43,389 nt of DNA from a virus (lineage: Duplodnaviria > Heunggongvirae > Uroviricota > Caudoviricetes), in IMG/VR virus record IMGVR_UViG_2778261064_000026, positions 1 to 43,389 of that record; one strand, 5' to 3'. Shown here piece after piece: positions 7,964 to 29,430 of the stretch. Positions within the stretch are counted from its first letter, which is position 1, and the number at the start of each line of letters is the position of its first letter. Under the pieces are notes generated by a model, which was not told the origin of the DNA, searched no databases, and saw nothing but the letters and a program-made list of their open reading frames with translations. A program made the position numbers and the translations under genes.

Positions 7964-8004
7964 TACGCCCCCGATATTTTATAATTTAATGGCAGAATTA
8001 TTTA

Positions 8005-8047: not shown

Positions 8048-8065
8048 AATTATTAGAATTAAATT

Positions 8066-12276: not shown

Positions 12277-12307
12277 GCTGTTATTTACTAGGCTTAGGGA
12301 GAAGGGA

Positions 12308-13078
12308 TTATTTCTTGAAGTCTTCGTACATTCTACGAAGGTTGTATTTTGGATGGCCTAAGCTAACCATGATTTGACTCAATTTAACCGCGCCGGGTTT
12401 ACCGTTTTCAATCCACACGCGCCGGATTTCATCGTAATGCTGCCAACAGCCTTGACCTTTAGCAATACGTATAGAATGTGTATATTTCTTGGTAGAGCTT
12501 TCTGGTCGCTTGCGCCCTAGATGTGCTTTTCTAATCTTTTCGCGTGTTTCTTCTGATACAGGTTTACCATAACGGGGGTTATTCTCTCCACGAGTAGCAG
12601 CCGATAATTTAGCTAATATTTCTGGGTTTGTTACTTTTTTGCCTCTCATTGCACTAGGTTTACCATAGCGATGGTTCTTTTCACCCATTCGAGATGCCGA
12701 CATTTTAGCTCTAGATTCCGGTGTATGTTTTCTTCCGTAAAAAGGATGATTTTCACCACCATCAAAACCACCGACACCACCAGGAGCTATATTAAGACAT
12801 ACACCACGCCCCCATTTTTCGCGTGCTGCCTCCACTAACAGGATTTCACATTCAAACGCTTCCTCGGCAGTATCAAACAATTTTGAACGAACAACTTCAA
12901 ATTCATATATCGGGGTTTCTGATTCTTTATTTTTACGCTTCATCATTTTAATAACTTTACCCGATCCCACATATCCATCGTCTAGATTTGTGGTTGTTCT
13001 TTTTCCGACGTAATGATAGATTTTACCAGAGCGATTAGATTTAATAGTGGTGTGATAAACGTAATGGAATTTTTGCAT
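12308..13078 (-). CDS. GIY-YIG homing endonuclease with NUMOD3-type DNA-binding repeats, 256 aa
   Basis: N-terminal YHYVYHTT...GKIYHYVGKR...GYVGSG GIY-YIG motif; three repeats HPFYGRKHTPESRAK / NHRYGKPSAMRGKK / NNPRYGKPVSEETREKIRKAH. Confidence 0.75.
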   Translation of the reverse strand: MQKFHYVYHTTIKSNRSGKIYHYVGKRTTTNLDDGYVGSGKVIKMMKRKNKESETPIYEFEVVRSKLFDTAEEAFECEILLVEAAREKWGRGVCLNIAPGGVGGFDGGENHPFYGRKHTPESRAKMSASRMGEKNHRYGKPSAMRGKKVTNPEILAKLSAATRGENNPRYGKPVSEETREKIRKAHLGRKRPESSTKKYTHSIRIAKGQGCWQHYDEIRRVWIENGKPGAVKLSQIMVSLGHPKYNLRRMYEDFKK

Positions 13079-13152
13079 ATAGGAAAGCCCTCAAAAATAA
13101 AGAATCTCTCCTATATTTATTGAGGGCTTTAGTGTGCCATTTAGTTTCAGTC

Positions 13153-13806
13153 TTATTTTTTAGACGAGTGCCAGCGGCTTTCGCTATTCCACTTCCCGGC
13201 ACGAGAGAAGAATAGATCATTCTCGTTTCCAACATAGGATCGGTGGATACCATCGGAGGCATGACTTCGAGCGTTTTTATCTAGAACTTCCCAGATACTA
13301 TTAAGCTGAAATTCTGATTCGTTTTTACACTCATCATATTCATGTTCGATGTTAATCCCGATGGAATCGACTACCCCACGGAAAACAGGGTAAGTGGTTT
13401 CAACCTTGCCCGTGTTAGGGTTCAGGAACACCATTTCGATTTTCACATCTGATTTATCGAATTGCTTGTTTCGAATCAGGGTAATGTATTCCTCGCGAAC
13501 GTTAGAAACGGTTACGTTAATCCCGTTGTTGTTGATCTCCTTCTCTTCGGTATTCGATGAGATTTGAAGAAAATCACCCGTTGCGAGATACGTAAATCCG
13601 TTATAGTCCAAATCGAAATACCCATCTGTAAGCCGTAGAACGTCCCCTGACGCTGTTATCACTTCGATAATGTGAAACATCGATCCAGTGGAAAAAAGCT
13701 GCGGTAGCGTCAATCTAGACACGTTCTGACCTGTCTGGTCGTTGTAGACCTCGATGAAGTCCAGATTAGTACATAGTTGGCTGAATGATTCCTGAATAGT
13801 TGCCAT
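13153..13806 (-). CDS. minor tail protein (L-like position), about 217 aa from MATIQ
   Basis: position between tape measure and K/J genes; start chosen at ATG overlapping upstream stop; track ORF extends to 13860. Confidence 0.4.
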   Translation of the reverse strand: MATIQESFSQLCTNLDFIEVYNDQTGQNVSRLTLPQLFSTGSMFHIIEVITASGDVLRLTDGYFDLDYNGFTYLATGDFLQISSNTEEKEINNNGINVTVSNVREEYITLIRNKQFDKSDVKIEMVFLNPNTGKVETTYPVFRGVVDSIGINIEHEYDECKNESEFQLNSIWEVLDKNARSHASDGIHRSYVGNENDLFFSRAGKWNSESRWHSSKK

Positions 13807-14402
13807 TATACATTCTCCACTAATTCGAATTTCATCTTGCCAATCTGGGCGATCTTCCAATCGATATTTTCAGTTTTGAGAACAAATTCACCTTCTACGT
13901 TCTGATACTTGATCACCTCACCCGCCAGGACGTTCTGACGCAAGTTAGGGAAGAGTTTCATTTCACCGCCTGATTTCACGTCTTCGGTGATCGTGTAGAT
14001 TTTCTTGTGGTTCTCAAACTGTACAATCGTTCCCGCTTTCAGTGTTCCGGTGAAGTTGGAGATTCTCACCTTACGCCCACCGCGAGCAGTACCAGCAGCA
14101 GCCGTAACCATCTGGCGTACATCACCTGTATATTTTGAAAAGTAAGACAGTGGCACACTAAAAGGACGACCAAAAAGGTGACGTGCTACAAATTCTTTTA
14201 CTTCGTTAATATCCTGAGCCATGAAATTAGCTGTAAATTCTGCTTCATAAAAATGAATACCAGTAAAGCGACGCTGGAACTTACCAGAAATAGATTGCGC
14301 CTTGAAGAAAGGTTGTTTTGATTTAAGAGTAAAATCTGTGATTTTAATATTTTTGGATTTGAACATAGAAAAAGCCCCCATAGTTTTATGATTATTTATC
14401 AC
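13806..14402 (-). CDS. minor tail protein (M-like/distal tail position), 198 aa or shorter; start uncertain
   Basis: immediately downstream of tape measure; hairpin 14372-14414 overlaps 5' end so true start may be ATG at about 14381 or 14366. Confidence 0.4.
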   Translation of the reverse strand: MINNHKTMGAFSMFKSKNIKITDFTLKSKQPFFKAQSISGKFQRRFTGIHFYEAEFTANFMAQDINEVKEFVARHLFGRPFSVPLSYFSKYTGDVRQMVTAAAGTARGGRKVRISNFTGTLKAGTIVQFENHKKIYTITEDVKSGGEMKLFPNLRQNVLAGEVIKYQNVEGEFVLKTENIDWKIAQIGKMKFELVENV

Positions 14403-14417
14403 TATGAGGGCTTTTAA

Positions 14418-16772
14418 TTACATCTTACGGCGCTGTGCGTCTTCTACCGCCTGAGCAACTAACTTAGCATGACGTTTGATAGCATCCATGACCATCTTGT
14501 CTGAGCTATTAACGTTGCCGTTAATGTTCAAAGGTGCGTTAACTTCAATCGGCTGAGAGTTACCACCGCCTGATTTTTGAGCAGATAAGAAGTCTTTCAA
14601 ATCACCGTTAGTACGCTGATCAACTACTCGTTCACCCTTATCAAGCAGCCATGTACCCTCACGCGGGATGTTATCGATACCATCATGAGCCATACCGCTA
14701 ACGTTAGTAGACTTGATGTTTGCGATGTTCCCCATGTTCTGAGAAACAGCCAATGCAGCAGCCGCGATTTTTTGACCTGTGGTTACGTTGGTCGGATCGT
14801 TCCATGCATCGGTAGCAGCCGTCCACATGTTCACCGTCGCTTGTCCAATAGAGAATGCTTTATGAGCAGTGAAAGCCATCTGCATAGCTTTAGTGTTTTC
14901 CTGCCCGAAGAGAGTCATTGCAGCAGCAAAACCGCCATACATATCATCAGCTATTGACTGACGAGCATCAGCATATTTCTTCTCAATTGCAGCCATTCGT
15001 TTTTGATGGTTTTCATTGAGTTTTTCTAATTCTTCCATCCGTTTAGCCGGATCGGTGATCCCATCAATCTTGATTTTACCGGTCTTATAATCTTGTTCCG
15101 CTTCCGATTTCTCTTTATCGATTGCATTAAATTTAGCAAACGGATCATTTGGATCTTGATAGTCTAAGCTATTGGTCAACTGATTGGTTTTAAAACCATC
15201 CATTCCATGCAAAGAATCTTCAATCTGTGAATAACTTTGCTCGGTATCATTCACACGACGCATATATTCTTCGTAGGAGATAGCTTTACCATCAAGTAAC
15301 CGTTTATGGCTTTCTAACTCGTTGTCCCTGATTTGTTGCAAAACTGTTAAGGCATTCAAAGCATCAACCGGATCAGCACCCAGCATCATTTTATAGATGT
15401 TTTCTGCGTTCTGGTCTAACAGTTGCTGACGTTTAGCGGCTGCGTCTTGCTGTGAGATTAAGCCCAGATCTAAAGCAGTGTCCAAATCTTTCAAGCTGGC
15501 TTCTAACTGCTTGTTTTGAGAAGCAATAGACGCGGCTGTCTGTCCTTGCAATTTAACATCAAGAGCATTCAGTCGCTTGATTGCATCCTCGCGTGCTTTC
15601 TGTGCTTTTTCTGCGGCTTCCTTAGCCTTTTTAGCTGCCTCTTCCGCTTTCTTCTTGGCTTCTTCTTGTTCTTTTTTTGTTGGACCAGTGACGCCTCCAC
15701 CTTGACCCGTTGGGGTAAATCCAGTATCCGATTTATTTCCAGTGATAGTAATTACCGGATCGCCGTTTTTATCACGGGTAACTCCTTCACTATCCACCCA
15801 ACGATCAGGATAATTTGGTTTATTGTTGAAGCTGGCTTGTCCACCTGCTAGACCAGTAGAACTATAACCATGCTTGTTAATAAAACCACCGTTAGCCATA
15901 GCCATATTCTGGCGAGCTTTTTCAAACCTTTCATTAAACGTCTTTAATGCGTTGAATAAAGCGGTCTTTTCCCAATCTTTATCAAACCAGTTGTATAACT
16001 TGTTCATCCCTTCAACAACTGGATTTAGCGCATTTGCTGCCATACCCTTTAAGTTATCGGTAAGGGTATCCATATTTTTAGAGAATTTATTATATTCTTC
16101 GGCTGTATCATTGGTGATTTTAACAGTTTGCTGATTAATGGCGTTTACAGCTTCCTGATAAGATCCGTATTTCTGCAATTCATCAGCCATATGACTTGAA
16201 TCACTGGCTAACGATTCCATCATAAACTTAACATCAGCGATAGACGCACCAGCCTTGCGCATATCATAGAAGACCTTGATTGCCGCTTTCATCCCGCCTT
16301 GTGGATCGTTCATAAACTCGGCATAATCTTTAATCTTCAAACCTACACTTTCTAGGTCGTCTTCAATACCGCCACCGTTACGCCATGCATCAGCCAGTTT
16401 ATCTAAGGTGTCTTTGTTAATATCACCAAATTTCTCAACGGTTAAGCCAGTGCCAGAGAATTGCTTCTCTAATTTCTGGAGTGTTTCGACGGTTAAACCA
16501 GTTGCTTTTGAAACTTCGCTGTATTCCTTTACATAATCACCGATGGCATTTGCAGCAGAGACAGCACCAGCAGCCAGACCAACAAAACCACCAGCAGCCA
16601 AAGCAAGCGATCCACCAGTTCCGCGAAGGGTTCCACTTAAACTAGATAAACCACCAGACAAATCAAGATTCATTGCCCTTTCTGAAAGGTTATCAAGCAT
16701 GTCAATCGCTTGGTTGGTACTTCTCCTTAGACCGTCGTTATTCCCTTCTATTGTTACTATATGTTTTGTCAT
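14418..16772 (-). CDS. tail tape measure protein, 784 aa
   Basis: size, position after chaperone pair, long coiled-coil/low-complexity stretch KKEQEEAKKKAEEAAKKAKEAAEKAQKARE. Confidence 0.8.
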   Translation of the reverse strand: MTKHIVTIEGNNDGLRRSTNQAIDMLDNLSERAMNLDLSGGLSSLSGTLRGTGGSLALAAGGFVGLAAGAVSAANAIGDYVKEYSEVSKATGLTVETLQKLEKQFSGTGLTVEKFGDINKDTLDKLADAWRNGGGIEDDLESVGLKIKDYAEFMNDPQGGMKAAIKVFYDMRKAGASIADVKFMMESLASDSSHMADELQKYGSYQEAVNAINQQTVKITNDTAEEYNKFSKNMDTLTDNLKGMAANALNPVVEGMNKLYNWFDKDWEKTALFNALKTFNERFEKARQNMAMANGGFINKHGYSSTGLAGGQASFNNKPNYPDRWVDSEGVTRDKNGDPVITITGNKSDTGFTPTGQGGGVTGPTKKEQEEAKKKAEEAAKKAKEAAEKAQKAREDAIKRLNALDVKLQGQTAASIASQNKQLEASLKDLDTALDLGLISQQDAAAKRQQLLDQNAENIYKMMLGADPVDALNALTVLQQIRDNELESHKRLLDGKAISYEEYMRRVNDTEQSYSQIEDSLHGMDGFKTNQLTNSLDYQDPNDPFAKFNAIDKEKSEAEQDYKTGKIKIDGITDPAKRMEELEKLNENHQKRMAAIEKKYADARQSIADDMYGGFAAAMTLFGQENTKAMQMAFTAHKAFSIGQATVNMWTAATDAWNDPTNVTTGQKIAAAALAVSQNMGNIANIKSTNVSGMAHDGIDNIPREGTWLLDKGERVVDQRTNGDLKDFLSAQKSGGGNSQPIEVNAPLNINGNVNSSDKMVMDAIKRHAKLVAQAVEDAQRRKM

Positions 16773-16783
16773 AAATTACCCCT

Positions 16784-17125
16784 TTAACCGCTTCTGAGTT
16801 TCTCAAGCAAAGATGGATCAAACATGTTCAGCATTGCCGCTTTACGTTCTTCTTCTTTCTTGCGTGCAATTTCTTCCAGTTCTTCTTTAGTTTTAAAGAG
16901 TTTTTCTTCTCTAATTAATTGGAATTGGCTAGGCTTGAGTTTGCGTGCAGTTTCGCGTGTCATTCCTTGCGATGTCATATACATGGAATATTGCAACATC
17001 GCATTCTGCATATCTTGAAACGCGGGGCTTTGTGGTTCTAAGTAGGTGTCGAAAATGTATAATTTCCAAAACAGAGTGATTGGCATATTATCCATTTCAT
17101 CTTTACTAAGCCCCGATCGCATCAT
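16784..17125 (-). CDS. tail assembly chaperone, T-like frame (possible GT fusion partner), 113 aa
   Basis: position between major tail gene and tape measure; frame open upstream of its ATG into end of preceding ORF. Confidence 0.45.
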   Translation of the reverse strand: MMRSGLSKDEMDNMPITLFWKLYIFDTYLEPQSPAFQDMQNAMLQYSMYMTSQGMTRETARKLKPSQFQLIREEKLFKTKEELEEIARKKEEERKAAMLNMFDPSLLEKLRSG

Positions 17126-17154
17126 TTGCCGGAAATAGAAATTCAGAAGCGGGT

Positions 17155-17463
17155 TTACTTTACCTCGTTTTCAATTACTGCCGGATCTTGCATCAAGGAT
17201 GCTTGAGCAACTAAGCCGATTAATTCACTACGGACGTTAGTATACAGTGCTTTAACTTGTTCCATAGATTCAAATACTGGCTTACCGTCTTCATCTTCAA
17301 TACAACGAAGAATAGAACGTTCATCACGGTCTTCTTTATCGGTATTGAAAACATGTTCGTTAAATTCTTTTACTGACATAGGGCGAGCATAGAAAGTGAA
17401 TCCACCGATGGTCAGAGATTCGCGTTTAGGAGAAAGTGCGGCTAACATTTCATTAATATTCAT
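17155..17463 (-). CDS. tail assembly chaperone, G-like, 102 aa
   Basis: position directly after major tail protein gene and before tape measure. Confidence 0.45.
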   Translation of the reverse strand: MNINEMLAALSPKRESLTIGGFTFYARPMSVKEFNEHVFNTDKEDRDERSILRCIEDEDGKPVFESMEQVKALYTNVRSELIGLVAQASLMQDPAVIENEVK

Positions 17464-17509
17464 TATTGTTTCCTCTTAAGTTAATTAGATATGTTTATTT
17501 AGAATTGGA

Positions 17510-17537
17510 AACAAAAAAGCCACCCCGAAGGATGGCT
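17510..17537 (-). terminator. strong rho-independent terminator (UUCG-type tetraloop) after major tail protein gene
   Basis: minus-strand agccatcc-ttcg-gggtggct followed by ttttttgttt. Confidence 0.55.
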
Positions 17538-17545
17538 AGAGAATA

Positions 17546-18016
17546 TTAGACTTTCTGGAAAACAGCTTGTTTAACCGGAGCACCATCTACTACAAAAGTG
17601 AAGGTACGACCGACTACAGCATCTTCGCCGCCAGTCATGGTAGTTTTAGACAGGAAGCCGTTATAAGCGATGTGTACACCAGATTTTTTGGTAGCGTCGA
17701 TGTAGTAAGCAATTTTAAGCTGTACGCGCTTACCGTCTTCGGTTGCTTTAATCAGTTTTTCGTGTACTTCGTTACCCGGCATGTAGTTGATCGAAAGTTC
17801 GATATCCGGTACAGACATACGACCAACCAGCTTACGGTTATACGGACCACCGAAGTTAGGAACATCGACAGTAGAACGTTCTACACCAGTTTCCGGGAAA
17901 GCCGCACATTCTGGAATTTCCAGATAGGTTTCAGCGTCAAGATCAACGTTAGCTACATCTTCTTGCAGAAACAGACCAACGAGGCCACCAGAGAAAATAT
18001 CAAATTTAGTAGTCAT
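17546..18016 (-). CDS. putative major tail (tube) protein, 156 aa
   Basis: immediately upstream of chaperone pair; host-optimal codon usage; followed by strong terminator. Confidence 0.5.
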   Translation of the reverse strand: MTTKFDIFSGGLVGLFLQEDVANVDLDAETYLEIPECAAFPETGVERSTVDVPNFGGPYNRKLVGRMSVPDIELSINYMPGNEVHEKLIKATEDGKRVQLKIAYYIDATKKSGVHIAYNGFLSKTTMTGGEDAVVGRTFTFVVDGAPVKQAVFQKV

Positions 18017-18104
18017 TATTCTTTTCCTTCTATTTTTAAAACAATAGGGTACATGCCCGTAATTCTATTTATTTAGTTAAATGGGGGTGTTCCCCCCATT
18101 TATA

Positions 18105-21100
18105 TCATTTACAGGATTTAATAGCCGCAAGTTCAGCTTTAACAGCTTTCAACTCTTCGTTCATCGCATCATACTTAGTCGTTAATTCCTGAAAGGCTTT
18201 CACGAAAAGAGCATTGATACTAGAAACAGAAATAGTTTTAATTTCTCCTGGATTTTCGGTATCTCCATCGCTGCAAACGTGCACAGCTTCCGGCATAACT
18301 TTTTCCACATCTTGAGCAATGACACCTAATTCGCGTCCAACCACTGTATCATCAGAAAGTGATTTAACTTTATCGTAGGAATATACGGTTAAGCTGTTTA
18401 ATTTATCCAGCGCACCTTCTTCCAATTCTTCCTTGTTGATCTTAAGACGTTCATCAGATCGAATATGCACATCGTTAAAGCTACCGTTACCCGGCGTGTA
18501 AAAGAACCCATCGTGATGGAACTCAAATACAGCTTGAGGGTGTCCGTTATCAGGTGAGTTTTCCGCAGATCCAACACGAATAATTGCTTGTCCCCAATTG
18601 TTAGGGATACGACGCATACCAAAATCGACGGCAGTTGTATACCCTTGATTGGTGATTAAACTTCTTGCTTTAACAATCGGATAATAACAGTCTTGTCCAA
18701 CATAGCCATGATCGACGAATATTGGCGCTTCCACTCGCCACTGATTACCCCAATCACCTGGTTGACTAGCGGTCCAACGTTCACCATGAACATATAATCG
18801 AGCGTTATTAACATGAACCATTTCGACGCCTTTTGGACTTAATGCAATATCCCCAGCGTTCGTAAGATTTATCGCGGCATTAGTAGCATAGCTATAGAAC
18901 GCTAATCCATTATCACCACCGCCTTTACCAATATACCAGTTGTTGTTGTCAGCACACGTACCCAACAAATATACAGACGAATCACCACTTTCGGCATTCA
19001 TGATAATTGCATCAGATCCACGATTAATTTTCATTTTCCCGAAGAAGGTGTTTTTAATGGTATTATCCCATAGACGTTCAAATTCGGCTAAAAATCCTTT
19101 TGAGTCACGAAGACTTAAAACGTTATTTCGACCTGTATTGCTTGCTCCCCAATGGACGAGTTCCATATAGTCCATAGATTGACGAGAACCAGCTTTAAAG
19201 AAAAGATTGTCCTCAAGACGAGTGCTACCATCAATTCCAAGATGCAAACACCGAGCGGTTGCAGTACCACCTAAATACAATCCACCGTCCGCAAAATCAT
19301 AGCTGAATGGTCTGCGATTATTCCAACTACCAAAAGAATCTTTTAAATCGGTAGTAAGAATATGGAAGCTAGAACCATCATTGCGTAACATCAAACCATA
19401 GTTACCGCCTTTGACAGCCAAACGAGCATTTTCAGATAATGCAACTTCGCTATTCATTACAATTTTCTGGCCTTTACCACCAGTAATATGTAATTCACCA
19501 TCTTCAATCAGGTTTATCGAGTTTTGACCGTTATCGTTCCACCAAATAAAATCTTTGGTTGTTCCATCACCAAAACCAAACCAGCCATTACGAACATCTT
19601 GACCAGTGCGATAATCCATAAAATTAAAATGGCTTGATTCGTTTGGTCCTCGACGAATATCAATACCAGAATTTCCAGTAACACCGCCATCCAATGTTAA
19701 TTTCTTGACATGTAACCCGGATGTTACTGTCAGCAATAATTCCTGATTTGTATCTTCGTATCCAGTAGCAAGACGATATGCGTTATCATCAACTGTCTCA
19801 TGCCAGATTGTAGCTGGTGCACAACTACGGAAGCGACGCAACATCTTTTTAGCATTTGTCGGTTGTTCGTTTAAATGCTCAATGTCGTATTGGCCTTGAT
19901 GGTTTCCAGCAAAATTTAATGTCCCACGGTTGCTAAAGTTATTAAACGATGAAATGTTAAGAGCATCAAAAATTTCATCTGCAACAGGTTTTTCACCGCC
20001 CAGGTATTCAGGAGTATCCAACAGGTTTAAAGAAACACCACCGGAAGAAACTTGATATTCTGCTAAAACAAATCCTGTATGTGCACCATAGTAAGCGTAA
20101 AGATCGTAATTATCACCATCGGTAGGAATTGCACAAAAATGTTGTTCGTAATACCAAATAGTATAATACGCATTGAATACAACACCTTTCGGGCTATTGT
20201 TGCCGCAACGGATCACCAGTTCAATAACATTGGCTTGTCCATTCTGTCCGACGTTATAACCGTTACCACCCACTAAACGGATCTTAGCCGTACGACCGTG
20301 TTGTTGTGGCATTGTCAAAGTGCCTAGTTTAAACCAACCGCCCTCGATCCCAAAATTAAGCGTCTTCTGGAAAAGTCGGTCAATTTCTGCTTTCGAATAT
20401 GCGCCAATTTCAGCCGGAGTAGGTTTATCACCTTCGTGATACATGCGGTGAGAATATGCTAAATGACCCAATTCATCATAGCCGTATGTTCTTACCGTAG
20501 CATGTGGATTAGACCCATAAGTGAACTCAAAACCACGAGCATGATTAACACCGGATGGATGGGGAACATGCAACGCTAAAGCAATATGACCAGCTAGATC
20601 ATTCATGCGGAATGCACCAAAGTAATCAAGATTACGAGCATTTGGATCATCAAAATAGTTTGCGGTCTTAGACAGCAAATAACCATCAGTGTAAGTGTTT
20701 ACGTGTTTTTTGATGTACTTACCGTCACTCGATCCGTCGGCTGCATCAATACGGCTTTCTAAGCGTGCCAATTCAGAATCAGTGTAAGACTTGTTATTGT
20801 CAACTTTGCTATGAATTGCTGAATTTTTGGCTTCAACATCACGGGTTAATGCTGCGACGTTATCCGCTGCCTCTTGCTTGTTTGCTGCAATAACACTATT
20901 AAGGCTATCGCGCGTAGCGGTTAGCTGATTTTCCGCATAAATTTTATTTGCTGCGATAGTGCGATCAGTCTCGGCCTTAATCAAATCAACTTTGTCATTG
21001 ATAGCTTTATCATTGCTTGCGATGGTTGCATCAGTACGGGATTTAATATCATCAACTTTTTTATTGATGCGGGTGTCCAGTTCCTGAGTTGCTACAGCAG

Positions 21101-21533
21101 CCGCATTTTTATTAGCGGTGATGGTATCGGACAATTCAGATTTAACACCAGCAAGATCGGAAGCAGCTTTATTTTTATTGGCTTCGATTGTCGCGTCGGT
21201 TTCGCGTTTAATTGTATCAACTTTATTGTTAATTTCTGCGTGATTGTTGGCAATAGTAGAATCGGTAGTTCGTTTAATTTCGTCTACTTTAGCGTGAATA
21301 TTGCGGTCGTTTACTGCAATTGTGCTATCTAATTCTTGTTTGTTAGCATCAACTTTAGATTCTAATGCCGCATGAGTTTCAGGAGAAACAGAGATTTGAA
21401 CTACTTCATGATCTCGGTCTTTGGTAAAAATAACATGGTCTTTAAGGTTGATTGCTACCTCACCGACCTGTAATTGTTCCGGCGTTGGCTTTTTGCCAGA
21501 AACATTAGTTCGTTTAAATTGGATTGATTGCAT
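18105..21533 (-). CDS. side tail fiber protein with C-terminal intramolecular chaperone auto-processing domain (peptidase S74-like), 1142 aa
   Basis: N-terminal coiled-coil repeats (VDEIKRTTDSTIA / VDTIKRETDATIEA / VDDIKSRTDATIA / VDLIKAETDRTIA); C-terminal HIRSDERLK plus about 117 aa typical of self-cleaving chaperone domains. Confidence 0.8.
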   Translation of the reverse strand: MQSIQFKRTNVSGKKPTPEQLQVGEVAINLKDHVIFTKDRDHEVVQISVSPETHAALESKVDANKQELDSTIAVNDRNIHAKVDEIKRTTDSTIANNHAEINNKVDTIKRETDATIEANKNKAASDLAGVKSELSDTITANKNAAAVATQELDTRINKKVDDIKSRTDATIASNDKAINDKVDLIKAETDRTIAANKIYAENQLTATRDSLNSVIAANKQEAADNVAALTRDVEAKNSAIHSKVDNNKSYTDSELARLESRIDAADGSSDGKYIKKHVNTYTDGYLLSKTANYFDDPNARNLDYFGAFRMNDLAGHIALALHVPHPSGVNHARGFEFTYGSNPHATVRTYGYDELGHLAYSHRMYHEGDKPTPAEIGAYSKAEIDRLFQKTLNFGIEGGWFKLGTLTMPQQHGRTAKIRLVGGNGYNVGQNGQANVIELVIRCGNNSPKGVVFNAYYTIWYYEQHFCAIPTDGDNYDLYAYYGAHTGFVLAEYQVSSGGVSLNLLDTPEYLGGEKPVADEIFDALNISSFNNFSNRGTLNFAGNHQGQYDIEHLNEQPTNAKKMLRRFRSCAPATIWHETVDDNAYRLATGYEDTNQELLLTVTSGLHVKKLTLDGGVTGNSGIDIRRGPNESSHFNFMDYRTGQDVRNGWFGFGDGTTKDFIWWNDNGQNSINLIEDGELHITGGKGQKIVMNSEVALSENARLAVKGGNYGLMLRNDGSSFHILTTDLKDSFGSWNNRRPFSYDFADGGLYLGGTATARCLHLGIDGSTRLEDNLFFKAGSRQSMDYMELVHWGASNTGRNNVLSLRDSKGFLAEFERLWDNTIKNTFFGKMKINRGSDAIIMNAESGDSSVYLLGTCADNNNWYIGKGGGDNGLAFYSYATNAAINLTNAGDIALSPKGVEMVHVNNARLYVHGERWTASQPGDWGNQWRVEAPIFVDHGYVGQDCYYPIVKARSLITNQGYTTAVDFGMRRIPNNWGQAIIRVGSAENSPDNGHPQAVFEFHHDGFFYTPGNGSFNDVHIRSDERLKINKEELEEGALDKLNSLTVYSYDKVKSLSDDTVVGRELGVIAQDVEKVMPEAVHVCSDGDTENPGEIKTISVSSINALFVKAFQELTTKYDAMNEELKAVKAELAAIKSCK

Positions 21534-21567
21534 CTAATCACCTCACATAAAACAGGAATAAGGGAGG

Positions 21568-21590
21568 AGTTAACCTCCCCGCGTCATGTT
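21568..21590 (-). terminator. stem-loop/attenuator between 277-aa gene and fiber gene
   Basis: gggaggagttaacctcccc hairpin followed by U-rich tract on minus strand, then RBS gaggtga. Confidence 0.35.
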
Positions 21591-21606
21591 TTATTTAGAG
21601 AAGCAA

Positions 21607-22440
21607 TCAGTATTCCCCGAAGTCGATCCGGTCATGGATAGAAACGGCTTCAATCTCGGCTGGCGTCGGTTTTTCTTCTGTGGAATACACTTTCACCCAT
21701 CCAGAATTACCATCTTTCTGGACTGTGCGAACTCGTAAACGTGGTGCGCCGGAAGCGGTGCATGTTAGCTGCCAACCACCATCTTCATTAGGTTGAACGT
21801 GAATTAGTGAAGTATCAGCACTAAATGGGTTAGATGCGCTCGATCCCTGATAGGTTACGAAACGGTTTCCGGCTAATGCTTCGCTATCAATCGGACCCGT
21901 GAATGGATTTACACCAGCACCCAAACCAAAATCACCCTGACGTAAGATCCGGCCTTCGGTAGCAATACCGCGATCTAGAATCCCGCCATCAGGATCTAAT
22001 TTAAATTCGATGGTAGTAACTTTGTTATCGCTACCACGGGTTTTATGTGACGAGACATAAGCGTCAAAGATGACGTAGTAACCTGTGTTAGCAGCACTGT
22101 AACCAGAGTTCACAACATAGAACATACGAAAGCGTAAAGGAGTTTTATCATTCACCGCTTTCATCAACATGTCTTGATGTTCGTCATCCAGAACACGGTT
22201 TACTACTAACGTAGTTGATTCAAGTTTACGATAGCCAGCAAGTTTACCCGTAGCGTCCTGATCATACTCTTCTAACGTCTGGATCTCTGTGGATTCGGTT
22301 ATCGTCGGGAATGCTGCGATGTTCTCGATAGGACTAAATGCAGGATCGAAAAAGTCCGGCTGGTTATCCACCATAGTAGACACGGAGACTTCAACATGCG
22401 ACCCCGTGAAAATGTCTAAGTTATCTTGTGTAATATTCAT
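21607..22440 (-). CDS. virion structural protein, 277 aa, with fiber-type KPTPAEI motif
   Basis: position between connectors and fiber; C-terminal EEKPTPAEIEAVS also present in the fiber (DKPTPAEIGAYS). Confidence 0.4.
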   Translation of the reverse strand: MNITQDNLDIFTGSHVEVSVSTMVDNQPDFFDPAFSPIENIAAFPTITESTEIQTLEEYDQDATGKLAGYRKLESTTLVVNRVLDDEHQDMLMKAVNDKTPLRFRMFYVVNSGYSAANTGYYVIFDAYVSSHKTRGSDNKVTTIEFKLDPDGGILDRGIATEGRILRQGDFGLGAGVNPFTGPIDSEALAGNRFVTYQGSSASNPFSADTSLIHVQPNEDGGWQLTCTASGAPRLRVRTVQKDGNSGWVKVYSTEEKPTPAEIEAVSIHDRIDFGEY

Positions 22441-22449
22441 TATTACCCC

Positions 22450-22878
22450 TTAAAAACGCGCTAGATAAGAAAATTTAAGGCTAAGTGTCCCAACGATACC
22501 CCCATCACTAGAATCATCGTCATAATCGGTATTAGAAGCTACTGGAGTGATATCTGAAATAGAGAAGCCCAAATCTTTAAATCGTGGGTTATCCGGCTGA
22601 ATCTGGATTATCTGGCAAATACCCTCATGAATTTTCGTTTCATGAATCTGAGAATATAATTGCATTTCGATAACGCATTCAGCTTGCATTGCATTACCAC
22701 CACGGACCCTAGTGTAAGTCTCATTCATTCCGGTAATCCAACACACCACGTCATCGCTAAAACCAGTTTGAGTTTGTTCTACGTTTAAAGCCAGACCTAG
22801 ATCTTGTTCGATAATATCCTGTAAAGCACGTTTAATCTTAAGACGTGGCATATTATTAACGGTAGCGAGCATGTGCAC
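22450..22878 (-). CDS. head-tail connector/completion protein, 142 aa
   Basis: size and position after capsid gene. Confidence 0.35.
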   Translation of the reverse strand: MHMLATVNNMPRLKIKRALQDIIEQDLGLALNVEQTQTGFSDDVVCWITGMNETYTRVRGGNAMQAECVIEMQLYSQIHETKIHEGICQIIQIQPDNPRFKDLGFSISDITPVASNTDYDDDSSDGGIVGTLSLKFSYLARF

Positions 22879-23146
22879 CCCCTGCTAAAGTGATAAAGCA
22901 ATCACTGGTATTGTCACCATTGCGCTTAATGTATTGAACTTTGAAACGCTGATTTTCTACAATGACAATATCACCTTGCTTTAAATCTCCCTCACGACAG
23001 AATAAGAATTCTGTTTCTGTCCATACCCCTTGTTCGTCGGTAGTAGTAATTTCATGGTAAGCACGAATTGATTTACCACCTTCCACCACAAAAACCGGAG
23101 CACTCTTAAACATTCGATTTAATTGTGATTCTGATAATTTGAACAT
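22856..23146 (-). CDS. head-tail joining protein, 96 aa
   Basis: size and position after capsid gene. Confidence 0.35.
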   Translation of the reverse strand: MFKLSESQLNRMFKSAPVFVVEGGKSIRAYHEITTTDEQGVWTETEFLFCREGDLKQGDIVIVENQRFKVQYIKRNGDNTSDCFITLAGGAHARYR

Positions 23147-23176: not shown

Positions 23177-23204
23177 CAAAAAAGCCCCACCGTTAGGCAG
23201 GGCT
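23177..23204 (-). terminator. partial terminator after capsid gene
   Basis: agcccc...gggct hairpin with minus-strand U6 tract directly after the stop. Confidence 0.45.
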
Positions 23205-23296: not shown

Positions 23297-25306
23297 TCAT
23301 TCAGCGGAGATGTGAAGAACTTTCAGAGCTTCCGGCTGAGTAACAACATAATCCAGATCTACCCAGATACGCGGAACGATAGCAGACTGTGCACGGTAGG
23401 TAGTGTCGTCCATATCCAGTTCCAGACCGCCCCACTCACCGATAGTGATGCCGGAGAAGTCACCCAGAACGATGTGATCTGCCGGAATAACACCAGAAGT
23501 AACTACTTCGTAACCAGCCAGTTTGCCGTTTTCGATAATATAACCGGAAACGCCGTTATCTTTCAGGGTAGATTCCAGTTCGGCAGCGGTTGCACCGCTC
23601 ATCGCAAACTTGATCGCCTGAGCAGGAACGCCAGCGTCGGTCAGTTTAGCAATTTCTTTCAGGAAATCTTTGTAAGAGAAAGCAGCTTTCTTCTCAACGC
23701 GACCACCGTCTACCAGTTGTTTAACCAGACCAGCCGGACCACGAGCATTTTCTTTGTCAGACAGAATCAGTTGTTCCAGTTTGATACGAACAGCTTTGTT
23801 AATGTGGTCAGTGATCAGGGTAGCGATACCCGGAACGGTTTTCAGAGACTGACGGCTAATCGGGTTGCCACCAGCGAAAGTCTTAGGAGACAGTTTCACG
23901 TTCGCAAATTCAGCTTTGCTTTCCGGCGCAGCACCGTTTTCATCAACGAAGCCGAAAGCATCAACGCTGGATTTAGTCATTTTTGGAATAGCGGTCGGAG
24001 CATTCAAGCCACTGTAAACAGTCACACCCAGACGACCCAGAACAGATTCCGGCATCAGCATTTCGATGTAGGATTCAGTCATCAGTTTTTCGTCGGTGAT
24101 AGCAGTCAGATCGGCTTTGGTGTTACCAGCAGCAGCAGCACGCATAGCAGCAGCCGGAACGAATACAGAGCCACCACGAGCAGCACGACCACGCTGCATA
24201 GTTGCAGTAGCAGCCATTGCAGAAAACTCGGCTTCGTTAGCACCCAGAGCTTCACCATCTACCAGAGAGCGAATTACGTTGTTCAGGTCAAAAGTTTTTT
24301 CCATTTTAGAGTCCTTAATTTGTTCGTTATTACGTTGAGCATTGGTAATGTTATTTAGTGCCTTAGTGCGGAATGCTTCCGGCGTCATTTCTTTATTTGC
24401 CAATGCGCGTTTCAATTCTTCGTCATCAATATTTAGTTCGCGTGCAATTTCGCGAATTTCTAATTCGTCTTCTTCGGAACGTTCAGCCACTTCCTCGATT
24501 TTTTCTTCTTCAACCGGAGCAGCTTCACGTTCTTCTTTTATTTCTTCTGCTTCCCGAACAGTTGAACTATCATCATCAACACTTTCAGGATGTTCAGCGT
24601 CTTTTCCGTCTTCGAGATTTTCATTTTCTTCATTCTCTTCAACTTGGCGCTCTTGAGTTTCTTCTACTTCCGATTCTTTATTTTCTTCTACCGGAGTTTC
24701 TTCAACCTGAGCGACTTCTTTTTCTTCTTCGTCTTTAACTTGTTCGATTTGTTCTTTAGTCATATCGCGTTTCGCCTCCAAATTAACTGTGATAGTATTT
24801 AGAGAGCGATTTAAACCGACCGAATCGTCCGCTGGCACCGTGACCCACGAAATTTCGTGAGGAATCCATTTAGAAACAATGAGTTGCGATTTAGCGTAGT
24901 CGATGTGATACTCTTTAATGTCATAGCCGACCGATATTTTTTCCATCGTACCTTCAATGACTTTATTACGAATATCATTAGCCAAAGTCCCATGCTTGGA
25001 GAATTTAACCAGAGCACGACCTACGTTATCCGCATCGATTCGAGCGTTACAAACAACACCAATGTGATTATCGAAATTATGATTGAACAGCAACGGAGCG
25101 TTATTATTCAGACGAGACAGATCAACCGCTTCCGGTGTATGTACCAGAATTTCATCTAATACCACCATTTCTTGATTTTGCTCATCCCAGAATTGGCGCT
25201 GGTAAGGCTGGGTACTTGAGAAAGCAATTTCAAATTCGTATTGATCGTTATGCCCTTCGTTAATAACTCCACCGTAACCGTTAAGATCGCGGCGAAATTT
25301 AAGCAT
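23297..25306 (-). CDS. fused prohead protease (HK97/S78-like), acidic scaffold-like linker and HK97-fold major capsid protein, 669 aa
   Basis: N-terminal PLLFNHNFDNHIG and ISVGY protease-type motifs; central E/D-rich low-complexity region; C-terminal about 330 aa capsid-like; host-optimal codon usage. Confidence 0.7.
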   Translation of the reverse strand: MLKFRRDLNGYGGVINEGHNDQYEFEIAFSSTQPYQRQFWDEQNQEMVVLDEILVHTPEAVDLSRLNNNAPLLFNHNFDNHIGVVCNARIDADNVGRALVKFSKHGTLANDIRNKVIEGTMEKISVGYDIKEYHIDYAKSQLIVSKWIPHEISWVTVPADDSVGLNRSLNTITVNLEAKRDMTKEQIEQVKDEEEKEVAQVEETPVEENKESEVEETQERQVEENEENENLEDGKDAEHPESVDDDSSTVREAEEIKEEREAAPVEEEKIEEVAERSEEDELEIREIARELNIDDEELKRALANKEMTPEAFRTKALNNITNAQRNNEQIKDSKMEKTFDLNNVIRSLVDGEALGANEAEFSAMAATATMQRGRAARGGSVFVPAAAMRAAAAGNTKADLTAITDEKLMTESYIEMLMPESVLGRLGVTVYSGLNAPTAIPKMTKSSVDAFGFVDENGAAPESKAEFANVKLSPKTFAGGNPISRQSLKTVPGIATLITDHINKAVRIKLEQLILSDKENARGPAGLVKQLVDGGRVEKKAAFSYKDFLKEIAKLTDAGVPAQAIKFAMSGATAAELESTLKDNGVSGYIIENGKLAGYEVVTSGVIPADHIVLGDFSGITIGEWGGLELDMDDTTYRAQSAIVPRIWVDLDYVVTQPEALKVLHISAE

Positions 25307-25351: not shown

Positions 25352-26863
25352 TTAGGGATCGGCTGGGGAATTTTTTTCTTCACCCTCGCCATTAACGATA
25401 ATATTTAGTGCGCTCTTTTCGGCTTGAATCTCTGAGAATACTTTTTCAGGATCATCACCACGTTCCAATATAACGGCAGTACGTGATTTAAGTCCGTTAT
25501 CAATTAAAGCAATCTCGGCGCTTACGTCTTTAAATGGATCGACGGATTCAAAACGCGGACGGATAATAGTAGTGTTATCGATAATATGCGGAATTGCAGT
25601 AATACGAATCGGAACAATACCACGCGCGGAATAATGGCGTAGATATGCTTCGAAAATGGGCGACACCACTGTTTCAATCAATTTGTTTTGCAGTGCTTTA
25701 ACTCGTGTGCGCTGGGTTAATTCACCGAAACGTGCGGCGCTGTAGTTGATCTGGGAAGTATCACCAGTCAAGCCCTGTTTAAACACGCCTAAGCCCATTG
25801 ATACGCTAGTAAACATCGCATCATTGAAGCTGTTAAAGTCATCACCGCTTTGCGTCGCCTGGATGCTCTTGATCGTTGCCCCTTCCGGCAATTCCTGAAT
25901 AGTACCCGGTGCAAAATCCTGTACTACTTCCGGCGCTTGATATTGTTCATCCTCTTCACCAGTATCAAAATCGTCACCAGAATCTTTCGGACGCTCGATA
26001 AAGCCCATAGAACTAGCTGCAATACGTTTCTGGATAATTGCAGTTTCGCGGAATGCGTCTTGATGTGCGATATCCTTAATCACTGGCAGGAAATCAGTCA
26101 CACCACGCAGGGATTCGGCTGTAAGTGGTTGATAATAATGGCATACTTGCGATGCATCTACGCGATAGTTATCACCTGTGTAAGTCTGAGTCAGTAGGTT
26201 GATTTTACGAAACCAGTATGCTACTGGCTTCATTGTTTCTACGTCATACTCGATCCCCTGATAGATAGCACGTTCTTTGCTTACTTCACGGTTTAGCGAC
26301 CAGTCGCACTTATCAGCAGACAGGATAGAAACATTTAACTCATTGTTTTCTTTGGTTAAAACGATGAAGCACTCACCACCCATAACGCGCTCACGTTCAG
26401 CCATTACCAGCAGTTCACGGAAGTTAAAGCGACCGTTACGAGAGAAGCGTTTAGCATTCTGCGCCCACTTCCAGAAAGCATTCTCGATCTGCTTATTCAG
26501 TGCGCTATCAAGTTTGCCATTTGATTTAACGATTGATGGCTTCGGATCTAGGCCAGTACCAACCACCATATCGGTGATGTATTGCGTGTAGCGACTGCCT
26601 ACGGAAGTGTTTAAGGCCAGAGTACGACCCTGATCATAAAGGCGCTTACCGTTTGATTTGAGAGCCTTATTGAAGGTTCCTGTAATGGTGTCTTGTTGAA
26701 GTGATCCATCAATGCGATCACCCACCAGACCTAAACTACGAGTCGCCAAAGATCTCTGGTATTTTTCTATAGATTTGTCGATGAAAATTTTTGGTTGTTG
26801 CTGGCGGTGATTAGTTTTAACTGGAGTTTCTACCGCCTTTTTGCGTCGAAAAAGATTAAACAT
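25352..26863 (-). CDS. portal protein, 503 aa
   Basis: size and position between terminase and capsid genes. Confidence 0.6.
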   Translation of the reverse strand: MFNLFRRKKAVETPVKTNHRQQQPKIFIDKSIEKYQRSLATRSLGLVGDRIDGSLQQDTITGTFNKALKSNGKRLYDQGRTLALNTSVGSRYTQYITDMVVGTGLDPKPSIVKSNGKLDSALNKQIENAFWKWAQNAKRFSRNGRFNFRELLVMAERERVMGGECFIVLTKENNELNVSILSADKCDWSLNREVSKERAIYQGIEYDVETMKPVAYWFRKINLLTQTYTGDNYRVDASQVCHYYQPLTAESLRGVTDFLPVIKDIAHQDAFRETAIIQKRIAASSMGFIERPKDSGDDFDTGEEDEQYQAPEVVQDFAPGTIQELPEGATIKSIQATQSGDDFNSFNDAMFTSVSMGLGVFKQGLTGDTSQINYSAARFGELTQRTRVKALQNKLIETVVSPIFEAYLRHYSARGIVPIRITAIPHIIDNTTIIRPRFESVDPFKDVSAEIALIDNGLKSRTAVILERGDDPEKVFSEIQAEKSALNIIVNGEGEEKNSPADP

Positions 26864-26873: not shown

Positions 26874-27368
26874 TTATCGCGTAAGACGTAATTTGATATT
26901 TTTAATCGGGCTAATTCCCTGTTTACGTCGTTCGGCTTGAATTAATTTAGACAGTTGACGTTCATAATCAGTCTTCAATTGCTGGAGAACACCCAATGAC
27001 TCATAAGCGAATGAGTTCCCTTTTATTGTCATTGCAGATAATGCGGCTTCGTCCCCAGATAAACGGGCGAAAATAACTTGCTCGATTTTGGCGATAGTTT
27101 CCCGCAGATGTTCTTTTTTGGATTGACGCTGAAAAATAGGCAATACAGTTAATTCCTGCATTGATACCAGTTCTTCATCAAGAGTAATAACAATGGTCAT
27201 CTTCCCTTCTGGAAAGTCTAACGTTTTAATCTCGTGATTTTCCGGTGCATCATCGACCTGATAGACAACGCCTTTGCTATTACCTACCTGAATTGTTACA
27301 CCCTCTTCATTCGCCAGCGTGATTTTTTCGCCTTTACGAATTACTAAGGGAATTAGTTCTAAACTCAT
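26874..27368 (-). CDS. hypothetical head-morphogenesis protein, 164 aa
   Basis: position between large terminase and portal. Confidence 0.3.
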   Translation of the reverse strand: MSLELIPLVIRKGEKITLANEEGVTIQVGNSKGVVYQVDDAPENHEIKTLDFPEGKMTIVITLDEELVSMQELTVLPIFQRQSKKEHLRETIAKIEQVIFARLSGDEAALSAMTIKGNSFAYESLGVLQQLKTDYERQLSKLIQAERRKQGISPIKNIKLRLTR

Positions 27369-27440: not shown

Positions 27441-29345
27441 TTAGAACGATGTTACCCAGCTACGGCCTCTATTTGGACGTCTGGCGATGTTTTGACGTTG
27501 TGGTCGTGTGATTGGCTTAGTTTCTTCGATTTGCTCGTCAGATTGCGTTTCAGGAGCTTTTACGGGTTCTTCTGGTTCACGGTTCAAACTATCTTTGATG
27601 GCTTCGAGTTTTTCCCATGACATTTTATTGAGTACATGGCGAGAAGCAGCATAGGAATAAGCCAGGCAGTCGAGAGCCTCGTTTCGTTGCTGACCAACTT
27701 TTACCCAACGTGTGGTGTTACCCTGCCGTTTCAACTGTTCAGAAAGCAATTGCTCGCAATAGTCATCAGGAACGTCGCCAATCTGGAAGACAGTGTGAGG
27801 ATCGCCATCTCTCAAATTCCGGTTAATCATTTCACGGATCATCGTTTTAAGGTTGTTTACGCCCAGAATTTTAAGGGTAAAACCACCCGTTCTTGTGTCT
27901 TTTACCGGAAGGATTGGTGCATCAACATTGCTTGCGCCTTTAATGGCGGTTAGATTTTGCCACCGACTACAGAATCGATAGATCACTTGCGTAGCTCGTC
28001 CGTTCGATGAGTCCACGAAAGCAGATAACATCGGGATTCGTTCACCGGATCGGGTATAGAATTTCGCTTTCAGGAAGTTGTAAAGCTGGTCATATGCTGG
28101 TGATTCGTGGCGTTCGCAGTTCACATCATAGAATGATCGGTGATCAACTACGCATAGCCCTTTACGAGAAATACCCAGCAAGGTAGATTCCAGACGGTCT
28201 TTTTGCTGGTCAACTCCACCAACCAGAGCCAGTACATCATCAGGAATATTGTCTAGGCTAATATCAGTTTTCAGCGTTTCTAATTCGTCGGCTGTGCGGT
28301 CTTCGTTAAGATCATCGAAGGTTTCACCGAGGACTGTATTGTAGAACGTTGCCAGGGACATATTCGCGTAGCTATCAGCAAAGTCCACCACACACGCACG
28401 GATAGAACTAAACGGAGACATAAGGCGGTTAGCATGAAAACCGATTACTTCCGCGTTTGGTTCGGTGGCGACCCATTCTCCCTTAGCAACAGCACGTAGG
28501 CGATCCCCTTCGGTCCAATCGGTTTCACATTCAGGGCAACGGTAAACGGCTGTATCTGGGTTGGGTAATGATTTACCGTTAATCGTATGCCAATCGAAAT
28601 GTACGTTACTCCATTCCATTACGTGCTTGTGTCCGCAATGCTGGCAAACGACATGATATTTTCTCTTATCCGAGAGTTCCCATTGTTGGTTAATCGCCCC
28701 ATCACGAGCGGTTGGAGTGGAAGCAATTACGATCCTTGCATCTTCCCCGAAAGTGGTTGCGCGTTGTTCCGCTAGCTGGATCGGGTTCCCTTCGTCTGAT
28801 TCATCAGCCGCATCAACTTCATCAAGAATAATCAAAGGGAGTGTCTTACCGCGCAAGTGTGATGGACTGTTCAGCGACATGAAATACATGAATGATCCAT
28901 TACGAAGCTGAATAATCGATGAGTTGTTAACAGCATTACGGTCTGATTTGTCGGTGATCATCGCTTTTAATTCTGGCGTTGCCTCTAATACTGGCTTCAC
29001 CTTACCAGCGATCCAAGAATTTAGTTCCCTAACGTTACTTTGCAACACCCCAATATTCGTAGGGTTACTCGCGATCCGATGGAAGATAATTCCGTTAAGA
29101 ATCATGGTCTTACCCAACTGCGCCGAACATTTAAACACAATTTTTCTACGGTCTTCGGTGATCGCGTCCATCATTCCACGTTGGAAGGGATGCAATTTAA
29201 TTAGCGATCCGGCTTTAACACCATCGGTTGCAACTACATTAGCCTCTACCCATTCGCTAGGTTTCATCGTTTTAGGTGGGCGAATTGCCGCAGAGATATT
29301 TTTAAGAATCTTTTTTAATTTGGCCTTATTAGAAATCAGTTTCAT
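27441..29345 (-). CDS. terminase large subunit, lambda gpA family, 634 aa from MKLISNK
   Basis: Walker A KCSAQLGKT; CQHCGH zinc motif; NTVLGETF and RNEALDCLAYSYAA segments matching gpA-family landmarks; RBS gaggg before ATG 29345; track ORF extends to 29420. Confidence 0.85.
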   Translation of the reverse strand: MKLISNKAKLKKILKNISAAIRPPKTMKPSEWVEANVVATDGVKAGSLIKLHPFQRGMMDAITEDRRKIVFKCSAQLGKTMILNGIIFHRIASNPTNIGVLQSNVRELNSWIAGKVKPVLEATPELKAMITDKSDRNAVNNSSIIQLRNGSFMYFMSLNSPSHLRGKTLPLIILDEVDAADESDEGNPIQLAEQRATTFGEDARIVIASTPTARDGAINQQWELSDKRKYHVVCQHCGHKHVMEWSNVHFDWHTINGKSLPNPDTAVYRCPECETDWTEGDRLRAVAKGEWVATEPNAEVIGFHANRLMSPFSSIRACVVDFADSYANMSLATFYNTVLGETFDDLNEDRTADELETLKTDISLDNIPDDVLALVGGVDQQKDRLESTLLGISRKGLCVVDHRSFYDVNCERHESPAYDQLYNFLKAKFYTRSGERIPMLSAFVDSSNGRATQVIYRFCSRWQNLTAIKGASNVDAPILPVKDTRTGGFTLKILGVNNLKTMIREMINRNLRDGDPHTVFQIGDVPDDYCEQLLSEQLKRQGNTTRWVKVGQQRNEALDCLAYSYAASRHVLNKMSWEKLEAIKDSLNREPEEPVKAPETQSDEQIEETKPITRPQRQNIARRPNRGRSWVTSF

Positions 29346-29430
29346 GTAATTACCCTCATTACGAAATATGAAGGTATTTATTAAATTGTTGATTTTTTGA
29401 TAAATACGGGTATTAATCAAAGGGGGTTGT

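Follow-up and report, generated by a model that had tools for sequence, protein, structure and literature searches.

The distal half of the T-even long tail fibre is built from two proteins: in T4 a gp36 trimer attaches to the N-terminal part of gp37 (PMC3004832). RB49-like gp37 proteins are reported to carry a self-cleaving C-terminal chaperone domain (PMC9569957), and distal parts of gp37 are already known to be exchanged with temperate phages (PMC9659904). The mounts of siphophage side fibres have been described in two structural papers, both times as collars. In T5 a separate, dodecameric, immunoglobulin-like collar of p132 holds pb1 around p140, a tube-like ring adjoining the distal tail protein (PMC10038345), and in Ur-lambda the side fibre Stf anchors by its own N-terminal collar domain, present in 12 copies at the gpV/gpM junction. 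Here we analyzed the IMG/VR virus record IMGVR_UViG_2778261064_000026, a stretch of 43,389 nucleotides from a virus of the Caudoviricetes that we refer to as the window, and in particular two adjacent genes encoding a 277-amino-acid (aa) protein, p277, and a 1142-aa fibre. Our main interest is how this fibre is held, apparently by a tail-tube paralogue through an end-to-end joint of the T4 gp36-gp37 type. We consider it likely that p277 anchors a T-even distal half-fibre on a lambda-like siphophage tail through this joint and that the fibre matures by autocleavage of a C-terminal Peptidase_S74 (S74) domain. The coordinates of all features are collected in Table 1.

Judged by homology, the fibre is a full orthologue of the distal subunit of the T-even long tail fibre, gp37, with an added coiled-coil segment. 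It matches phrog_1699 ('long tail fiber protein distal subunit') with an E-value of 4.5e-113. From about aa 288 to aa 1057 its DNA is 83–87% identical to gp37 of RB49-like phages (Krischvirus), and aa 283–1135, which cover shaft and tip, share 78% amino-acid identity with gp37 of the RB49-like phage MIZ4. The N-terminus, MQSIQFKRTNVSGKKPTPEQLQVGEVAINLKDHVIFTKD, reproduces the gp37 N-termini of T4 and MIZ4: aa 1–51 are 41% identical to aa 4–54 of MIZ4 gp37 and 45% identical to T4 gp37, and tblastn matched it to the N-terminus of gp37 in 1246 phage records, among them that of T4. In contrast to T-even gp37, this head is followed by an insert of ∼215 aa that resembles a coiled coil, has no counterpart in MIZ4 gp37 and gives a weak Apolipoprotein-like Pfam match at aa 80–249. 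A database search with aa 268–399 alone, which cover the first shaft domain, returned 2 proteins, and a profile was therefore built from related loci; tblastn placed the domain in the N-terminal part of T-even gp37 as well as in Aeromonas T4-like gp36 and Felixounavirus fibres. The distal region resembling the T7 gp17 tip aligned with PDB entries 7boz, 4a0t and 4a0u (phmmer, E 7e-4 to 2e-3), and a gp37_trimer Pfam match at aa 843–893 stayed under the cut-off. T-even fibres of this kind belong to myoviruses, whereas the fibre studied here lies in a lambda-like temperate siphophage that offers neither gp34 and gp35 nor the context of a contractile-tail baseplate.

The protein encoded upstream of the fibre has a tube-like N-terminal part and a gp36-type C-terminal end. 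Over aa 11–154 p277 matches the major-tail-protein family phrog_158 (E 2.4e-9), the same family that the canonical 156-aa tube protein of the window matches with an E-value of 3.3e-19 (Phage_TTP_12, E 6.7e-5); the two proteins are 20% identical. Pfam and NCBIfam gave no tube family for p277, and a sequence search of the PDB with the p277 profile yielded nothing meaningful. The AlphaFold2 model is confident over aa ∼12–162 and poor over aa 163–212; the modelled domain shows the predicted tube-protein fold with its long beta-hairpin and was matched to lambda gpV by Foldseek (E 5e-8). We also considered p277 as the tail terminator, since it occupies the position of lambda U, and rejected this assignment: the AlphaFold2 model of the neighbouring 142-aa protein, with a predicted local distance difference test score (pLDDT) of 79, matched lambda gpU (3fzb), T5 p142 and the necks of NF5 and SaPI1, while tube proteins are the best matches of p277. 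The usual tube position just upstream of the G/GT chaperone genes is held by the 156-aa gene and not by p277. As stopper, terminator and canonical tube protein are all present already, p277 appears to be an additional, diverged tail-tube paralogue, with a C-terminal third made of a single fibre-shaft module and a tail of gp36 type, and is not a connector. The earlier note on this DNA, which was made from the sequence alone, had found the fibre gene oddly placed between connector genes and the major tail gene. This placement is real and conserved, as the order terminator, p277, fibre, tube was kept in every related locus examined, but the upstream gene does not encode a connector: p277 and the fibre make up one fibre cassette between terminator and tube gene, which in some relatives is a single gene. 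Of 5426 complete E. coli genomes, 56 carry prophages with the same gene order, at ∼89–93% identity, and further relatives with matching order were found in Salmonella, Providencia, Edwardsiella, Proteus and metagenomes. E. coli O55:H7 DEC5A shares 92.9% nucleotide identity with the region of the cassette. Across these five genera the p277 homologues are 275–281 aa long, 51–98% identical and share ∼40 invariant residues, among them G163, G169, G172, G174, G176, G182, D185, G191, N192, R193, N204 and P205 of the Gly-rich segment.

The C-terminus of p277, ...VKVYSTEEKPTPAEIEAVSIHDRIDFGEY, reproduces that of MIZ4 gp36, ...FEIYHEGHKPTPDEVGAVPLNAVIDFGTF, and the tail of T4 gp36, ...VIKDSVQDFGYY. The whole gp36-type C-terminal module, a Y-x4-KP(T/S) motif followed by xDFGx[YF], is present in p277 (...VYSTEEKPTPAEIEAVSIHDRIDFGEY) as in MIZ4 gp36 (...IYHEGHKPTPDEVGAVPLNAVIDFGTF), and the two C-termini are 43% identical over 28 aa (BLASTP, E 2e-4). 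MIZ4 gp36 ends in ...VIDFGTF; T4 gp36 has the terminal ...VQDFGYY in common with the p277 type, without an adjacent KP(T/S) motif. The N-terminus by which T-even gp36 binds gp35 (MADLKxGS...) is absent from p277, which has the tube-like domain in its place. The pairing of this tail with a gp37-type head is conserved. Of 48 related loci (E. coli, Salmonella, Proteus, Edwardsiella and metagenomes), 47 have a p277 homologue with D[FL]Gx[YF/E] at its C-terminus and, as the next gene, one whose product starts with [IKF][QK]F[KR]R; the remaining locus has a frameshifted copy. The phage record Ec3-ASingh, a partial genome of unverified status, gave no useful information. Across all six frames, the window contains exactly one tail of gp36 type and one head of gp37 type. 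The junction is likely to lie between the last eight residues of p277 (DRIDFGEY) and the first ∼50 residues of the fibre. A Proteus prophage carries a chain of three links with two such joints: a p275 (...EIDFGEF), a 198-aa protein (L009:8882-9478) with the head MKSIQFKR..., a coiled coil and the tail ...LIMDFGTF, and a 675-aa fibre (...RIQFKRTF...). The fibre of the window corresponds to the last two links of this chain in fused form, which accounts for its coiled coil of ∼215 aa, a segment missing from T-even gp37.

The best case for the tube-like domain as the tail-attachment domain of the fibre comes from relatives in which the two parts are covalently joined. Searching 1.84 billion proteins with a profile of the p277 family gave 273 representatives. 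Among the best 149 of these 273, 126 begin with a tube-like domain, and 112 of the 126 are at least 320 aa long (median ∼890 aa), that is, long fibre proteins; 45 of the 112 have an S74-like motif close to their C-terminus and 7 end in a gp36-type tail. A scan of genome contigs with the p277 alignment confirmed no locus. In one relative with the gene order of the window (L057), a single 1057-aa protein comprises tube-like domain, fibre and Pfam S74 domain, and its gene is flanked by a 139-aa gene in the terminator position and by a tube gene whose product is 41% identical to that of the window. In another (L058), a 395-aa protein consists of the tube-like domain and a near-complete gp36 homologue ending in STIDFGTF, and is followed by a 1466-aa gp37-like fibre with S74 and then by a Gp38_N protein. 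These arrangements indicate that p277 and the fibre would be the split version of one functional unit. The L058 prophage itself is probably deleted and defective: at L058:13338-15188 a DUF6950 gene and tail-tip genes come directly after the tube homologue, and the chaperone and tape-measure genes are missing between them.

Tube proteins often bear decoration domains, as do lambda gpV and SPP1 gp17.1*. p277 could likewise be a decorated tube subunit or a short whisker, with the long fibre attached elsewhere, for example to the terminator or neck or to a distal tail protein, and the known siphophage side fibres, mounted by collars at the junction of tube and distal tail, fit such a view. However, p277 ends in a gp36 tail that is always followed by a gene with a gp37 head, and in relatives the tube-like domain runs on covalently into a full fibre at the equivalent genomic position. 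Moreover, Pfam and PHROGs detected no p132-like protein and hence no T5-type collar among the neighbouring genes, although a collar domain of the lambda Stf type was not searched for directly; of the T5 mount, only the analogy of the tube-like ring with p140 holds. We consider attachment of the fibre at another site unlikely.

The fibre that p277 is proposed to hold ends in an S74 domain. PF13884 matched aa 1026–1085 over its full length (profile positions 1–58 of 58) with an E-value of 2.5e-14 and 53.8 bits, well over the curated cut-off of 22 bits. The motif HIRSDERLK spans aa 1023–1031 (18441-18467), and the Ser-x4-Lys dyad of Ser1026 and Lys1031 is intact with i/i+5 spacing, the same as in endoNF (S911/K916) and MyRF (S587/K592) (PMC8326128). 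Ser1026 is followed by 116 aa, and the predicted released fragment including the Ser counts 117 aa, the final stretch of the gp37-type fibre, as expected for a domain that sits at the very C-terminal end of trimeric fibres or spikes. The C-terminal region aligns with that of gp37 from Salmonella phage S16 (PDB 6f45), MIZ4 gp37 has the equivalent site YIRSDDRLK, and an S-D-x-R-x-K motif occurs ∼95–116 aa from the C-terminal end in nearly all fibres of the family. The earlier note had proposed a self-cleaving chaperone for the 1142-aa fibre from the HIRSDERLK motif with ∼117 aa behind it, cut at a Ser with its codon at about 18456-18458. The coordinates given were correct, and the match to the full S74 profile, the dyad and the kinship with RB49-like gp37 support the proposed architecture and the predicted cleavage at Ser1026 as far as sequence can show. 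The domain is an ordinary family member of a kind already known in T-even gp37 fibres. With its C-terminal placement, size of ∼117 aa, Ser-x4-Lys dyad and Pfam match it corresponds to endoNF (K1F), T5 pb1, GA-1 gp12 and MyRF, and nothing notable appears to set it apart from these chaperones. The last ∼85 residues are unlike those of the RB49-like relatives, which would suit a module that only folds and trimerises the fibre and stays uncleaved; with both catalytic residues and the complete Pfam profile intact and self-cleavage reported for close relatives, we regard this as quite unlikely.

At the cleaved tip, T-even fibres of the RB49 and S16 type carry the adhesin gp38. A gp38 gene hidden elsewhere in the window was considered and dropped after tblastn found no gp38-like gene anywhere in it; the tip of the mature fibre must thus work differently from that of its closest relatives. 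Some relatives do have the adhesin: a gene of T2/T6-type gp38 (phrog_2056) comes after the fibre in ETEC4085 (L002:5160-5942) and in five further loci (L049-L053). As gp38 occurs in some relatives only, the T-even distal kit of gp36 end, gp37, S74 and gp38 would have moved into the prophage lineage in differing combinations. In one group of E. coli loci, three tandem paralogous open reading frames (ORFs) of ∼100 aa (L012:11357-12263), each with ...W(F/Y)(D/G)IPNG(W/Y)... and without a PHROG match, follow the S74 fibre where other relatives have gp38; such tandem ORFs are also found in L013, L014, L016, L017, L019 and L021-L023, and may encode alternative tip proteins or chaperones.

Both proteins of the cassette contain the heptamer KPTPAEI, as the earlier note had seen, in the middle of the fibre (DKPTPAEIGAYS, aa 369–380, 20394-20429) and near the end of p277 (EKPTPAEIEAVS, aa 256–267, 21640-21675, 10 residues ahead of the stop; the heptamer itself at aa 257–263, 21652-21672). 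Only 1 of 300 shuffles of p277 had an exact 7-mer in common with the fibre. In five of the seven codons of the heptamer the two genes have different third bases, which means that the motif is conserved at the protein level; recent gene conversion between the two sites was rejected for this reason. When the two regions were aligned, the similarity reached past the motif: fibre aa 300–380 and p277 aa 193–267 are 33% identical (BLASTP, pairwise E 0.006), and profile-profile comparison with hhalign paired p277 aa 221–270 with fibre aa 333–383 over 48 columns (93.7% probability, E 1.8e-7). We then scanned for the pattern Y-x4-KP(T/S)-x2-(D/E)-hydrophobic-x-(A/V/L)-hydrophobic. MIZ4 gp36 has four copies of it and MIZ4 gp37 one, the gp36/37 fusion of Aeromonas phage 44RR2.8t and the long p277 homologues have two each, and none is present in tape measure, gpJ, capsid, portal and terminase of the window. 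The pattern, with up to four copies per protein, is therefore the conserved end of a ∼50-aa fibre-shaft module of the T-even gp36/gp37 type that occurs in repeats. The shared motif had been taken to imply either domain shuffling or a common attachment interface. The first is right, given the homologous module; the second is probably wrong in detail. An interface by which both proteins dock on one partner could account for a motif that is conserved in protein despite codon divergence and kept in p277 homologues of five genera, but the repeats in MIZ4 gp36, in the long p277 homologues and in the Aeromonas fusion are module ends within continuous fibres, where no partner can dock. In addition, the motif of the fibre lies 370 residues from either end of the trimeric shaft, and at the true chain ends it is the DFGx[YF] tail and the IQFKR head that are conserved. 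A docking role of KPTPAEI is thus very unlikely; as the end of the shaft module ahead of gp36-gp37-type joints, and found at internal module boundaries as well, the motif would mark shared ancestry. That p277 is a decaying remnant of a fusion between tube domain and fibre, truncated when the T-even gp37 was acquired and with the motif as a mere recombination scar, is hardly credible: fused full-length relatives do exist and the fibre genes are mosaics that break at the borders of modules, but p277 has held its length and ∼40 invariant residues across five genera, its extreme C-terminal tail is conserved, and a frameshifted copy occurs in only 1 of 48 loci.

Returning to p277 as the anchor of the fibre, the following assembly may be proposed. 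The C-terminal chaperone would fold the three fibre chains and bring them into register, and the Ser1026/Lys1031 dyad would then cut just before Ser1026, so that the 117-aa fragment would come off and the mature fibre would have 1025 aa. p277 would join the tail as a specialised tube-like ring, its C-terminal arms would trimerise, and the tail DRIDFGEY would form a non-covalent end-to-end joint with the fibre head (IQFKR...GEVAINLKD...), as in T4 gp36-gp37. Going by the collinearity of gene order, the ring may sit just under the terminator; a position beside the distal tail protein, like that of T5 p140, is equally possible. Several points weigh against this proposal. A tube ring is six-fold and fibres are three-fold, so that two fibres per ring or a mixed ring would have to be conceived. 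The AlphaFold2 model of the C-terminal third of p277 is low in confidence, and pairwise similarity between p277 and the fibre is weak (E 0.004–0.006), the relationship resting mainly on family profiles. The tail and head sequences are too invariant for a test of covariation, and the window has no gp38-like gene, whereas gp38 caps the cleaved tip in RB49/S16-type fibres.

In comparison to the described mounts, the T5 fibre is held by a separate collar, whereas here the tube paralogue itself bears the fibre stub. Ur-lambda Stf is similar as an accessory side fibre on a lambda-like tail with a gpJ-type central fibre, and its distal part is related to T4 gp37. However, Stf brings its own anchor and is encoded downstream of J, while the proposed anchor in the window is the product of a separate tube paralogue gene between terminator and tube genes. 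In searches of open-access full text, which turned up only the T5 and lambda collars, we found no description of a tube paralogue carrying a fibre or a gp36-type plug, which is not proof of novelty. The anchoring architecture looks new; an S74 chaperone on a gp37-type fibre is known. The chances seem even that p277 and its many longer relatives represent an undescribed mount of side fibres on non-contractile tails, in which a tube paralogue forms part of the tube and then either runs on covalently as a fibre or, as in the window, ends in a gp36-type plug.

Table 1. Positions of the tail-fibre cassette, its parts, other structural genes and a serine recombinase gene in the window
Feature	Position	Strand	Remark
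Terminase, gpA type	27441-29420	(-)	
Head-tail joining protein	26874-27368	(-)	
Lambda-family portal	25352-26863	(-)	
Prohead protease-capsid fusion	23297-25306	(-)	one 669-aa ORF
gpFII-like protein	22856-23146	(-)	
Tail terminator gene, 142 aa	22450-22878	(-)	directly upstream of p277
p277 gene, 277 aa	21607-22440	(-)	
p277 tube-like domain, aa 9-162	21955..22416	(-)	
p277 conserved Gly-rich segment, aa 163-212	21805..21954	(-)	pLDDT <50
p277 fibre-type module, aa 213-269	21634..21804	(-)	closes with EKPTPAEIEAVS
p277 C-terminal tail DRIDFGEY, aa 270-277	21610..21633	(-)	matches gp36 C-terminus
Fibre gene, 1142 aa	18105-21533	(-)	
Fibre N-terminal head, aa 1-50, MQSIQFKRTNVSGKKPTPEQLQVGEVAINLKDHVIFTKD	21384..21533	(-)	homologous to gp37 N-terminus bound by gp36
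Fibre coiled-coil-like segment, aa ∼51-267	20733..21383	(-)	absent from T-even gp37
Fibre first shaft domain, gp36/gp37 type, aa 268-381	20391..20732	(-)	closes with DKPTPAEIGAYS
KPTPAEI in fibre, aa 370-376	20406..20426	(-)	
Fibre distal region like T7 gp17 tip domain, aa ∼831-932	18738..19043	(-)	candidate receptor-binding tip
Peptidase_S74 intramolecular chaperone domain, aa 1026-1142	18108..18458	(-)	predicted release by cleavage just before Ser1026
Ser1026 codon	18456..18458	(-)	predicted nucleophile and cleavage site
Lys1031 codon	18441..18443	(-)	predicted general base of Ser-Lys dyad
Canonical tail tube gene, 156 aa	17546-18016	(-)	directly downstream of fibre, upstream of G/T chaperone genes
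G- and T-like chaperone genes	17155-17463 and 16784-17125		after 156-aa tube gene
Tape measure	14418-16772	(-)	
gpJ-like central fibre	8066-11842	(-)	lambda-type C-terminal receptor-binding domain
Large serine recombinase	889-2568		

According to the Pfam and PHROGs assignments, the window holds a temperate, lambda-like siphophage with its structural genes on the minus strand, the genes for distal tail and hub proteins coming after the tape measure. NCBIfam gave zero matches for six neck, tail or fibre proteins of the window, and 18000-22500 is free of DNA repeats according to Tandem Repeats Finder. From ∼37 kb onward the G+C content is >0.5, and this part was taken as host DNA. In the 669-aa fusion ORF, Peptidase_S78 (aa 40–162) and an HK97-type capsid domain (aa 411–665) are separated by a strongly acidic, Glu-rich linker. 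Strong terminator-like hairpins with T-runs lie right after the capsid gene (23183-23204) and after the 156-aa tube gene (17518-17537, minus strand), and weaker hairpins after p277 (21561-21580) and after the fibre (18078-18102); they could set the ratio of major to minor structural proteins. In the tail-tip module, a gene at 12308-13078 (minus strand) between the hub gene and a DUF6950 gene encodes a homing-endonuclease-like protein with three NUMOD3 motifs (phrog_314, E 3.9e-32) and resembles a selfish insertion within the tail operon. At the prophage end, two genes for proteins with a CapR homology domain (2642-3928, minus strand; 3971-4540, plus strand) and a UvsW-like helicase gene (4531-6030) adjoin the serine recombinase, possibly as a defence or accessory module. 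Among the related loci, the 141-kb record of Escherichia phage DCP80 (PQ671644.1, L003) is classified as Straboviridae/Gaprivervirus. Its bases 1-18560 contain a lambda-like siphophage structural module of the family of the window, including a 698-aa p277 homologue; a chimeric assembly or a wrong classification is possible.

If confirmed, the joint would provide an annotation rule for split fibre chains, in which a ...DFGx[Y/F] C-terminus is followed by an M..IQFKR N-terminus, and a natural plug-and-socket for the engineering of phage host range. It would also explain why gp37 DNA of 83–87% identity is found both in lytic T-even phages and in E. coli prophages. A gp36-type plug would make whole T-even distal half-fibres, with gp37, S74 chaperone and sometimes gp38, fit a lambda-like temperate phage, and would thus let host-range modules pass directly between prophages and virulent myoviruses.

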